Below are positions 42,001 through 46,200 of a stretch of DNA of 64,000 nt, in pieces. How positions within the stretch are numbered: position 1 is the stretch's first letter; each line of letters starts with the position of its first letter. The position numbers and the translations under genes are program-made. The notes under the pieces are model-generated. The model was given only the letters and a program-made list of their open reading frames with translations. It was not told the origin of the DNA and did not search any database. The DNA is from Mobula birostris (taxonomy: Eukaryota). The stretch is from the NCBI RefSeq assembly GCF_030028105.1, contig NC_092377.1, positions 77,158,569-77,222,568 of the forward strand, given 5' to 3'.

Positions 42001-42700
42001 GGAGTACAATAAGGTCCAATAATGGGGTTTAAGCTAAATTTGCAGGGGGCAGGGATCCAGAATGTGAGAGAGGATAGCGAGATGAAGTATAAAGGACAGG
42101 TGGGGACTACACAGTTCCGGCATATTAAGTGTGAAGTAGAGAAAGGTGAGGCGGAATGAGTGATAAGGAGGATACATGTGCAGAGGGATGGTCTGATGGA
42201 GCGTGGAGTTAAATGTGCAGAAAGAGTAAGTAAATTTAAGAAGGACAACAAAATTCAAGGAGCGTATAGCCCGGTGAGAGTTCGGGGAGCTGGGTTATGC
42301 ACAATAGGTAGCGATTTAAACAGAGAGAGGAGAAGTGGGTTAAAAATTCTATATCTGAATGCACGAAGTGTCAGAAATAAGGCGGATGAGCTTGAAGCCC
42401 AGGTGCGAATAGGTAACTATGACGTTGTTGGGATAACGGAGACATGGCTGCAGGGGGATCAGACCTGGGAATTGAATGTACAAGGGTATACGTGCTATCG
42501 AAGGGACAGAAAGGTGCAGAGGGGGTGGGGTGGCCCTGTTGGTGAGGAATAAGATTCAGTCCCTTGCAAGGGGGGACATAGAATCAGGAGAAGTAGAGTC
42601 AGTGTGGATAGAACTGAGGAACAGTAAGCGCAAAAAGACCCTAATAGGTGTTATCTACAGGCCCCCAAACAGTAGCATGGATATTGGGTGCAAGTTGTAT

Positions 42701-43273
42701 TGTTGTTGTTCGTCCATCGTTGATGTCGATGAGGACCTCGACACCATAATGATGGTGTCGAGACTAGCGCGTGATTTGGATTTAAGTGAGGGAGAGTTGC
42801 GCAGCGTCAGCCTCACTCTCTCTTCCCAATTCCCATCTGGGTCCAGTGGCAAGACAGAGTCTAGACGGCTAGAGATGGGACTAGGCGTAGTGGATGACCA
42901 GGACATCTTCTGTGTCTTGTCCTGCTCTACACGTTCCACGATGCTTGCAGAGACCGCCTTCTTGACCGTTGGACCTTCCATTGGTCTCGTCCGCTCAATC
43001 CGCCAGAGTCTGTCTTCACATGCTGGGATAGACAACTCCCTATCTCACCGAGGGTTTGAGACCCGTCGGCTACCCTCACCTGGTTTAGCCGGCTTGTCGA
43101 AGCCGTTGCCTGGGTTGTGGCCGCTGTCGCATGCAAACAGCTACGGGGAGCCACAGGTGAGAGCTGAGTGCCAGGTGGGGACCAAAGGTGGACTAACCGC
43201 CCTGAAAAGGATGCGACATGTTCTCCCACCAGAGGTGCTACCCCTCCCTGACACCCCATATACCATATAACCC
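42701..43273 (-). mobile_element. Non-autonomous RTE-type retroelement inserted in the CR1 endonuclease
   Basis: A perfect 10-bp TSD CAAGTTGTAT lies at 42691-42700 and 43274-43283. It has an (AAC)n tail, an 11-bp perfect 3' hairpin CTCGACACCAT/ATGGTGTCGAG and a CpG-rich body. Confidence 0.9.
43075..43257 (-). ncRNA. Putative HDV-like (delta-like) self-cleaving ribozyme at the 5' end of the RTE-type element
   Basis: The helices appear in canonical nested double-pseudoknot order: P1 GGGGUGU/ACAACCC, P2 CUCACCUG/CAGGUGAG, P3 GGC/GCC, L3 starting UCC, AG-GCAA, P4 CGGCUU-CGAC-AAGCCG, J4/2 GCUAA. Folded by eye only. Confidence 0.6.
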
Positions 43274-46200
43274 CAAGTTGTATAGGGAGTTAATAATGGC
43301 ATGTGGCAAAGGAAATGTCGCAGTAGTTATGGGGGATTTCAACATGCAGGTGAACTGGGAAAATCAGGTTGGTACTGGACCCCAGGAGAGGGAGTTTGTA
43401 GAGTGCCTACGGGATGCATTTTTGGAGCAGCTTGTACGAGAGCCGACCAGGGATAAGGCTATTCTGGATTTAGTATTGTGCAATGAACAGGATTTGATAA
43501 GTGATCTTGAAGTAAAGGAACCATTAGGAGGTAGTGACCATAATGTGATAAGTTTTTATCTGCAAGTTGAGAGGGATAAGGGCAGATCAGAAGTGTCAGT
43601 ATTGCAGTTGAACAAAGGAGACTATGGAGCCACGAGGGAGGAGCTGGCCAAAGTTGACTGGTCGGATATCCTAGCAGAAAAGACAGTGGAACAGCAATGG
43701 CAGGTATTCTTGGGAATAATGCACAAGGTGCAAAATCAGTTCATCCCCTGGAGAAGGAAGGATTCAAAGGGGGGAAAGTGGCCACAGTGGTTGACAAAGG
43801 AAGTCAGAGATAGCATAGCATTAAAAAAGAAGTATAACAAAGCTAAGGTGAGTGGGAAGACGGATGATTGGGAAATTTTTAAGGAGCAACAGAACTTAAC
43901 TAAAAAGGCAATACGGGGAGAAAAAATGAGGTATGAACGCAAGCTAGCTAGGAATATAAAGGAGGATAGCAAAAGTTTTTTTAGGTATGTGAAGAGAAGG
44001 AAGATAGTTAAGAACAATGTTGGGCCCCTGAAGAATGAATTGGGAGAAATTGTTATGGGAAACAGAGAAATGGCAGACGAATTTAATAAGTACTTTGGAT
44101 CTGTCTTCACTAGGGAAGACACAAGCAATCTCCCAGATGTATGGATGGGCCAAGGACATAGGGTAACAGAGGAACTGAAACAGATTGACATTAGGAAGGA
44201 AACGGTGATGAGTAGACTGATGGGACTGAAGGCTAACAAATCCCCAGGTCCAGATGGTCTGCATCCCAGGGTACTAAAGGAGGTGGCTCTGGAAATTGCG
44301 GATGCATTGGTGATCATTTTCCAATGTTCCTTAGATTCAGGATCAGTTCCTGAGGATTGGCGAATGGCTAATGTTATCCCACTTTTTAAGAAAGGAGGGA
44401 GGGAGAAAACAGAGAACTATCACCCTGTTAGCCTAACATCAGCAGTGGGGAAGATGCTAAAGATGAAATAGCGGCATATCTTGATAGCAGTGATAAGATT
44501 GGGCCGAGCCATTATGGATTTACCAAGGGCAAATCATGCTTGACTAATCTATTGGAGTTTTTCGAGGATGTAACCAGGAAGATAGACGCGGGAGATCCAG
44601 TGGATGTGGTGTACCTTGACTTTCAGAAGGCATTTGATAAGGTACCACATAGGAGATTGGTGGGCAAAATCAGAGCTCATGGCATTTGGGGGAGGATATT
44701 GACATGGATAGAAAACTGGTTGGCAGATAGAAAGCAAAGGGTAGCAGTGAATGGGTGTTTTTCGGAATGGCAGGTGGTGACAAGTGGGGTGCCACAGGGC
44801 TCGGTATTGGGACCACAGCTGTTTACGATTTACGTCAGTGATTTAGAGGAAGGCATTGTGAATAACATCAGCAAGTTTGCTAATGATACTAAGCTGGGTG
44901 GCAGTGTGACATGTGATGAGGATGTTAGGAGAATTCAAGGTGACTTGGATAGGCTGGGTGAGTGGGCAGAAACTTGGCAGATGGCGTTTAATGTGAATAA
45001 GTGTGAGGTTATTCACTTTGGGAGCAAGAACAGGAAGGCAGATTATTATCTGAACGGTGTGGAGTTAGGTAAGGGAGAAATACAAAGAGATCTAGGAGTA
45101 CTTGTTCATCAGTCTCTGAAGGTGAATGAGCAAGTGCAGCCGGCAGTGAAGAAGGCTAATGGAATGTTGGCCTTTATTACAAAGGGAATTGAGTACAAGA
45201 GCAAGGAAATCCTTTTGCATTTGTACAGGGCCCTGGTGAGACCACACCTGGAGTATTATGTGCAGTTTTGGTCGCCAGGGTTAAGGAAGGACATCCTGGC
45301 TGTGGAGGAGGTGCAGCGTAGGTTCACTAGGTTAATTCCTGGGATGTCTGGACTGTCTTACGCAGAGAGGTTAGAGAGACTGGGCTTGTACACGCTGGAA
45401 CTAAGGAGATTGAGGGGGGATCTGATTGAGACATATAAGATTATTAAGGGATTGGACAAGATAGAGGCAGGAAATATGTTCCAGATGCTGGGAGAGTCAA
45501 TACCAGAGGGCATGGTTTAAGAATAAGGGGTAGGTCATTTAGGACAGAGTTGAGGAGGAACTTCTTCTCCCAGAGAGTTGTGGAGGTGTGGAATGCGCTG
45601 CCTCAGAAGGCAGTGGAGGCCAATTCTCTGGATGCTTTCAAGAAGGAGCTAGATAGGTATCTTATGGATAGGGGAATCAAAGGTTATGGGGACAAGGCAG
45701 GAACCAGGTATTGATAGTAGATGATCAGCCATGATCTCAGAATGGCGGTGCAGGCTCGAAGGGCCGAATGGTCTACTTCTGCACCTATTGTCAATTGTCT
45801 ATAAGGTCAAAGTAATCCTATATTTCAATTTTGTCTTCTTGTTCTGATTGAGATCACCAGAACCCCTTCACGTTCCCTATAGCTGTTAGAGGAGGTGTTT
45901 GCAGATTAAGAACAGTATGAAGACAAGCTTTTTGGTGGAGTGACAGAGTATCTACCATCTCCTAGCAGACTGACTTTCCTTCTCCAGATGACTGTTTAAA
46001 ATTATTTTTAGAAGGATTTCCAAAGTTCTGTGTTATATCTACATGAATTCTACATTGAGTATTCCATATTTAATATTCAAAGTAAATTTATTTTCAAAGT
46101 ACGTATATAATCACCACATACTACCAAGAGTTTCATTTTCTTGCGGGCATTCACAGTAAATATAAAGAAACACAATGAAAAGCTACACACGAACAAAGAT

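Follow-up and report, generated by a model that had tools for sequence, protein, structure and literature searches.

Bipartite retroelements that lack ORFs and consist of the 5′ and 3′ ends of an RTE LINE, among them RTESINE1/2, WALLSI3, MAR4_MD and Bov-A, keep the 5′ end of their parent and have been linked to predicted RTE ribozymes, according to the portion of Kojima (2018) available here (PMC5786205). HDV-like ribozymes at the 5′ ends of RTE LINEs have been proposed to free the elements from co-transcripts (Ruminski et al., 2011, as cited in parts of PMC5786205 and PMC6765202). As far as the available sections of the sources go, the combination of a ribozyme with an internal deletion is already published for R2 (PMC3414825) and for L1Tc/ingi (PMC4035085). 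Drosophila R2 SIDEs and R2/R1 hybrid SIDEs carry an HDV-like ribozyme and a 3′ end joined by internal deletion, and are mobilised in trans (Eickbush and Eickbush, 2012; PMC3414825). NARTc/NARTco and SIDER1/2, found with the Pr77 of L1Tc/ingi, are dispersed non-autonomous elements with active 5′ HDV-like ribozymes, and the ribozyme head of L1Tc/NARTc can double as an internal promoter (PMC4035085). For R2, the 5′ extension model of Eickbush et al. (2013) involves a doubled P1 whose inner copy falls out of use (PMC3774820).

The element considered here lies in a 64,000-nt stretch of the Mobula birostris genome, referred to below as the window, and shares something with each of these systems. Like RTESINE1/2, WALLSI3, MAR4_MD and Bov-A, it joins the 5′ and 3′ ends of an RTE LINE and has no ORF; the available part of the source gives no ribozyme structure for those elements, whereas here a fold, a predicted cut register, a parent and a junction helix are resolved (PMC5786205). 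In the account consulted, R2 SIDEs are rDNA-specific and rare, with cleavage assayed, while the present element is dispersed, RTE-derived and of high copy number in a 4-Gb genome, and its ribozyme is predicted (PMC3414825). NARTc/NARTco and SIDER1/2 are likewise dispersed, with the ribozyme (here a predicted one) at the 5′ end, but they belong to the ingi clade and are described with ribozymes of 77–94 nt, as against about 192 nt here (PMC4035085). A duplicated P1 offering two possible P1 strands, with loss of the inner one extending J1/2, follows the same logic as in R2; in the R2 model, as far as the available account goes, 28S target sequence is what is duplicated and mutation erodes the inner copy, whereas the present element has doubled its own first 9 nt and pairing is predicted to take the inner copy out of use (PMC3774820). 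The 5′-end position is also that of the RTE LINE ribozymes, to judge from citations of them (Ruminski et al., 2011, via PMC5786205 and PMC6765202).

The insertion and its host site

A preliminary description of this DNA had reported a 573-bp insertion with a perfect 10-bp target site duplication (TSD), an (AAC)n tail and no RT ORF. Inspection of the minus strand found all of these, and neither an RT nor an endonuclease ORF is present. The duplicated sequence is CAAGTTGTAT.

42701–43273, minus strand: whole insertion, a bipartite non-autonomous RTE element with a 566-nt family body and a 7-nt 5′ extension
43274–43283: TSD on the element's 5′ side, perfect 10 bp
42691–42700: TSD on the element's 3′ side, perfect 10 bp

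The host sequence is another LINE, presumably of CR1 type, interrupted in its endonuclease region; the right flank matches Exo_endo_phos_2, and when the element and one TSD are removed in silico the endonuclease frame is open again, so that the empty site reads through. Five further copies (L001, L018, L031, L032 and L281) are located within the same LINE, likely because that LINE is abundant rather than because it is targeted.

A Pfam search with the two longest open frames of the element matched no family. A coding role for the sense strand was rejected, as its 114-codon frame is frequent in shuffles (P 0.29) and has no Pfam match. The antisense strand (window 42701–43270, plus strand) has 188 stop-free codons, also without a Pfam match; this was equalled in 20 of 3000 shuffles.

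The family and its relatives

A search of the whole genome (4.0 Gb) gave 4,025 candidates, the best 40 of which are full length with 96–100% identity. Exact matches number 894 for a 25-mer from the ribozyme core and 1,933 for a 20-mer close to the family's 3′ end, with none for the reversed control in either case; all of 30 loci sampled via the 3′ 20-mer belong to the family, whose copy number is put at 1,933 or more. Its majority sequence has a length of 566 nt, and the median identity of copies to it is 96.6% (22 copies). TSDs of at least 8 bp were found at 41 of 60 family loci. With its TSDs, microsatellite tail and many uniform copies, the family has the features of a bipartite non-autonomous RTE. 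Set up here independently of Repbase, it may already carry a name.

Leads from contigs of other organisms led to two further variants in this genome, H1 and H2 (955 exact 18-mer matches), making four related families, N, F, H1 and H2, that are 75–85% identical overall. Contigs of several other organisms (runs X1, X3, X11, X12, X16 and X18) also hold related families; in X3 the 5′ boundary is the same as here, and in X16 there is a LINE-type continuation. Among individual copies, L036 has about 60 nt inverted at its 5′ end, and several (L036, L060, L180, L195 and L205) have a similar SINE-like insert of about 130 nt, located in the loop of the junction hairpin described below or adjacent to it, which may represent a sub-family or a preferred target.

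A predicted HDV-type fold in the 5′ region

Every helix of the HDV-type fold proposed earlier lies where it had been placed. Read along the minus strand, the order is GGGGTGT (43257–43251), CTCACCTG (43161–43154), GGC, L3 with a hairpin at 43141–43123, GCC, ACAACCC, AG, GCAA, P4 (43105–43090), GCTAA with C43088, and CAGGTGAG (43082–43075). P2 can be extended up to P3 by pairing CUCACCUGU with AC-(C)-AGGUGAG, with one bulge. The predicted ribozyme is about 192 nt long, with a structured J1/2 and a 28-nt L3.

43153–43161, minus strand: P2, 5′ strand, invariant in the four family consensus sequences
43119–43152, minus strand: P3 (GGC/GCC), closing a 28-nt L3 of UCCCCG, UA, the hairpin and G
43123–43141, minus strand: additional L3 hairpin of 5 bp and a U-G pair, with a 7-nt loop, 94% of alignment cells paired, no double changes
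43110–43118, minus strand: P1′ and 3′ strand of P1.1, ACAACCC AG here versus ACACCCC GG in the family (43115 and 43111 changed)
43090–43105, minus strand: P4 hairpin, three pairs with double changes between families
43075–43089, minus strand: J4/2 (GCUAA, predicted catalytic C43088) and 3′ strand of P2, 14 of 15 positions invariant in four families
43048–43069, minus strand: conserved hairpin directly downstream of the ribozyme, found by eye in the four-family alignment

An HDV descriptor was written from the general anatomy of HDV ribozymes, in strict and relaxed versions. The strict version is passed by the family consensus and by nine of 30 copies picked via their 3′ ends, and has no matches in 30 shuffled windows or in 3000 shuffles of the first 200 nt. 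The copy at 42701–43273 requires the relaxed version, which has 14 matches in 30 shuffled 64-kb windows. Since the relaxed rules match shuffled sequence, this single copy is not significant alone, and the case rests on the family. There the HDV-type fold is supported by a consensus that follows the nested double pseudoknot order P1, P2, P3, P1.1, P4. The consensus also restores both the P1′ ACACCCC and the P1.1 GG, as had been anticipated in the preliminary description. Against it the copy in the window has 11 differences over 566 nt, two of them in the core and located exactly in P1′ (43115) and P1.1 (43111), where damage had been noted before. P1.1, formed by CC in L3 with GG after P1′, is present in all four family consensus sequences and broken at 43111 in this copy which, lacking one P1 pair and one P1.1 pair, is probably inactive.

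Of the 42 positions that make up the core (P2-P3-UCC, P3′-P1′-GG and J4/2-P2′), 41 are invariant in N, F, H1 and H2; by comparison, J1/2 keeps 50 of its 91 positions and J1.1/4-P4 keeps 8 of its 20. In the 15 positions of J4/2-P2′, the sole variable base is the one after the catalytic C, giving GC(U/C)AA in the four families. For covariation, 21 real copies chosen as the best preserved were aligned. In this set 90% of cells pair, against 35–47% in slid controls, the structure having been derived from the same sequences; double changes are seen in 14 of 54 pairs of the whole structure, a number reached by 8 of 500 shuffles in a control inflated by the relatedness of the copies. Of the helices for which covariation had been proposed as a check, P4 shows it (three pairs), and it is also seen in J1/2 (eight pairs). 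P1, P2, P3, P1.1 and the L3 stem have no family-level double changes; P1 and P2 do contain a few cells with double changes, but these trace to sequences that are truncated or misaligned.

An Rfam search gave no ribozyme or HDV-clan match at E values up to 5, nor at values up to 10 with an intact copy. This, and a relaxed descriptor that matches about once per two shuffled windows, is what would be expected if the HDV-like helix order had been read by coincidence into a 5′ UTR rich in GC and in hairpins. Such a coincidence appears very improbable, given that the strict descriptor has no matches in the controls, that the fold sits at the exact 5′ end, and that P4 covaries and the core is invariant.

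The preliminary description had called the L3 hairpin atypical, and so it is: all four families have the hairpin, which in H1 is shorter by 2 nt, and L3 is 28 nt long (26 in H1), not the 7–8 nt or so that is the norm for HDV-like ribozymes. The hairpin sits 3′ of a conserved UCCNNG. The HDV positions that match the site after this motif are exposed, and the hairpin would point away from the active site. A genome-wide search for an intact family with a short L3 found none; 10 matches with a shorter L3 are all deletion variants of these families. An alternative P3 (GGC/GCU) with a canonical 8-nt L3 was rejected on inspection, as the bases that follow give no P1′ or GG. Folded alone, the L3 region forms a competing longer hairpin in two of the four families. 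No description of an L3 insertion turned up in a literature search confined to papers other than the main ones on RTE ribozymes, which may contain one.

The 5′ end and a doubled P1

The family begins GGGGTRT-AT-GGGGTGT, that is, with two GGGGURU units, the second 9 nt downstream of the first. Unit 1, overlooked in the preliminary description, is damaged to ATGGTAT in the window.

43267–43273, minus strand: copy-specific 5′ extension, an extra degenerate unit (GGGTTAT) outside the TSD, with similar extra units in L038, L047 and L074
43260–43266, minus strand: unit 1, the family 5′ end and predicted 5′ strand of P1, with predicted cleavage just 5′ of 43266 (from 5′-end clustering and energies)
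43166–43257, minus strand: J1/2 domain, in which unit 2 (43257–43251) pairs with 43175–43166 as a basal helix (RNAfold)

G43257, at the start of unit 2, had been taken as both the 5′ end and the first base of P1, with the expectation that the 5′ ends of copies would cluster there. They do not. Among 90 loci not selected on their 5′ ends, 14 were dropped (duplicates, including the copy in the window, or below 88% identity); 55 of the remaining 76 copies contain the whole of unit 1, beginning 9 nt upstream of G43257 (48 by script and seven by eye), seven have 3–7 nt of it, two start at unit 2, and 12 are cut deeper or rearranged. Of 5′ ends mapped by TSDs, 14 of 41 are exactly at position 1 and one is at position 10. 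At family level, a P1 of 6–7 bp beginning with G at the RNA 5′ end is found with unit 1, and not with unit 2.

Unit 2 is predicted to be paired in all four families. Opening it is predicted to cost 11.6 kcal/mol here and 5.2–10.1 kcal/mol in the other families, about equal to the gain from P1. In J1/2, eight inner-helix pairs have double changes and three basal pairs have one-sided changes. With the 5′ ends clustered at unit 1 and unit 2 predicted to be locked in the J1/2 helix, P1 most likely uses unit 1. It would then form with the first GGGGURU, placing the cut at family position 1 (window 43266), and the basal helix of J1/2 would hold the second unit.

Pairing of P1 with unit 2 and cleavage at G43257 would have the merit of a perfect 7-bp match to P1′ throughout the family, including a subfamily in which unit 1 is mismatched, and part of family F does start near unit 2: 12 of 21 anchored F copies match for no more than two bases upstream of it by a strict count, or about eight of 25 by eye. 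Few copies of the element's own family start there (2 of 76), and the predicted pairing of unit 2 in all four families is a further objection. Moreover, the AT in which unit 1 ends differs from the CA that continues unit 2, which means that successive insertions cannot regenerate unit 1 from unit 2. On balance this register seems improbable, and the HDV-type reading survives with P1 shifted to the upstream unit, the most likely cut on this model being 9 nt upstream of G43257.

Unit 1 itself is not perfectly matched everywhere; family F has C-A at pair 7, one subfamily of the element's family has A-C at pair 6, and the copy in the window has a P1 mismatch in either register. The first 7 nt of this copy (GGGTTAT) do pair with its own mutated P1′, which was considered as compensation and rejected as coincidence: none of the other 29 of 30 P1′ position-4 mutants examined (56 in the genome) has a matching change. 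A third unit outside the TSD is seen in a few copies, those listed above and the one in the window. In L038, one mutation is common to both upstream units, as would be expected had the first 9 nt of the RNA been copied again; the doubling of the unit could have arisen in the same way, by reverse transcriptase re-copying those 9 nt.

Position −1 is T in 36 of 48 full copies, with a weaker A/T bias at −2 and −3. In most cases this T falls within the TSD (13 of the 15 ends that map to position 1), which suggests that the cDNA ends in an additional A able to pair with the target; a clean cut at G1 does not by itself account for it. The bias would also be compatible with a real fold in an RNA whose start is fixed by an internal Pol II promoter; the structure would then serve translation, RNA stability or protein binding, and would cut poorly or not at all. 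The long L3 insertion adjoining the active site and the P1 mismatches of F and the one subfamily could be read in the same sense, and the head of L1Tc, in the available account, is promoter and ribozyme at once (PMC4035085), a precedent to be weighed against the preliminary hypothesis of a promoter-less element that cuts itself out of host transcripts. A promoter of this kind is nevertheless unlikely, if less so than a cut at unit 2, as the catalytic C, P1.1, P3 and the A residues of J4/2 are fixed in four families while their neighbours drift, and the 5′ boundary coincides with the predicted cut site of a ribozyme using unit 1.

The parent RTE LINE

Three loci (L281–L283) run on from the 5′ part of the family into an RTE 5′ UTR. 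In L282, of about 4.1 kb, family positions 8–518 match its start at 95% and positions 520–564 match its end at 89%. The family thus corresponds to ~520 nt from the start and ~46 nt from the end of an RTE LINE of 4.1 kb in the same genome, which bears out the earlier suggestion of a non-autonomous RTE derivative and locates the parent.

42746–43266, minus strand: part from the parent RTE 5′ end, 93–95% identical to L281–L283
42701–42747, minus strand: part from the parent RTE 3′ end, with the (AAC)n tail, 89% identical to L282:4396–4440
42737–42762, minus strand: junction hairpin, 11 perfect bp, with arms 42762–42752 (parent 5′ UTR) and 42747–42737 (parent 3′ UTR)

Between its matching ends, L282 has broken frames with a match to RVT_1 (E 4e-21) and weak matches to endonuclease (APE) and zinc-finger families, below the Pfam cut-offs. 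It is taken to be a member of the RTE clade from its motifs and architecture. The coding 3′ end of the parent has 375 candidates in the genome, and 20 parent 3′ ends are 96.4% identical to their own majority sequence; compared with the median of 96.6% for the family, this indicates, as far as sequence divergence can, that parent and family copies are of similar age. Together with the shared 3′ end, it makes the parent a likely source of proteins for mobilisation.

There are two more autonomous RTE families in the genome, E, with copies 99.1% identical and no ribozyme match, and F, with the same ribozyme core. Neither is a suitable parent. Family E is 74–78% identical over family positions 232–505 only, has no descriptor match at its 5′ end and is younger (99.1%); F has the ribozyme in common but is 76% identical over positions 8–431. 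Four DUF6451-type RTE groups were likewise rejected as a source, with no similarity to the element and no descriptor match, and so was a Pol III SINE with a tRNA, 5S or 7SL head, as the whole length of the element aligns to the two ends of the parent and has no Rfam tRNA, 5S or 7SL match.

Some other features of these LINEs were noted in passing. The 5′ ends of family E (L164:1100–1300, L172:1086–1190) are ragged and GC-rich, without a ribozyme match. The two copies L164 and L172 have a common upstream sequence resembling a host gene exon, which hints at transcription from a host promoter; the exon-like sequence bears a likeness to methylmalonyl-CoA epimerase. In L163 and L174, unlike other E copies, several hundred bases between the 5′ UTR and the start of the endonuclease are absent; the gap lies just after the start of the RTE frame, and its left boundary is not GT, so it is no obvious intron. 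On G000:C38, about 20 near-identical DUF6451 matches between 14.8 and 17.3 Mb, spaced roughly 140–170 kb apart, suggest a large tandem segmental repeat.

The junction hairpin and a possible helix in the parent

In the parent, the two arms of the junction hairpin lie 3.5 kb from each other, and the 3′ arm is perfectly complementary in 16 of 20 copies. The homologous arms of family E are 3,551 nt apart, and 11 of 12 positions pair, with five changes on both sides (read from the sequences). Judged by duplex energy, the junction arms have better partners than each other, both in family E and in the parent copy. The deletion that produced the bipartite element may have fallen between the arms of such a 5′ UTR–3′ UTR helix. 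A literature search found no paper describing a helix of this kind. In one H1 sub-group (L264 and L274) the 3′ end is preceded by another, unlike long hairpin, which may be a junction helix of independent origin, and other H1 copies have an unrelated 3′ end, which suggests tail exchange.

Interpretation and significance

Taken with the observed bipartite origin, copy number, 5′-end position, conservation and partial covariation, the probable history is that the 5′ and 3′ ends of an RTE LINE were joined by a 3.5-kb internal deletion and spread to some two thousand or more copies, likely by means of the parent's proteins, as an RNA in which an inherited ribozyme of HDV type is predicted to cleave the 5′ end. 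As a kind of element this is real and ordinary; the predicted ribozyme variant is unusual. More tentatively, and with somewhat less than even confidence, a distinct and active subclass of delta ribozymes, characterised by an L3 stem-loop and by a P1 strand present twice, the inner copy being withdrawn into a structured J1/2, might head a whole vertebrate RTE radiation unseen by Rfam, and a short covarying helix might bring together the 5′ and 3′ UTRs of RTE RNA, with deletions falling across it, which would explain why two-part elements come so frequently from RTE.

The junction helix would offer a testable answer to the question of why few LINE clades make bipartite elements, left open by Kojima (2018) in the part of that paper available (PMC5786205). 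The doubled P1 would be a snapshot of the growth of ribozyme 5′ ends and J1/2 domains. If the ribozyme cleaves, HDV-ribozyme searches restricted to a short L3 overlook a large class, and thousands of copies in one vertebrate genome could cut the transcripts that host them.
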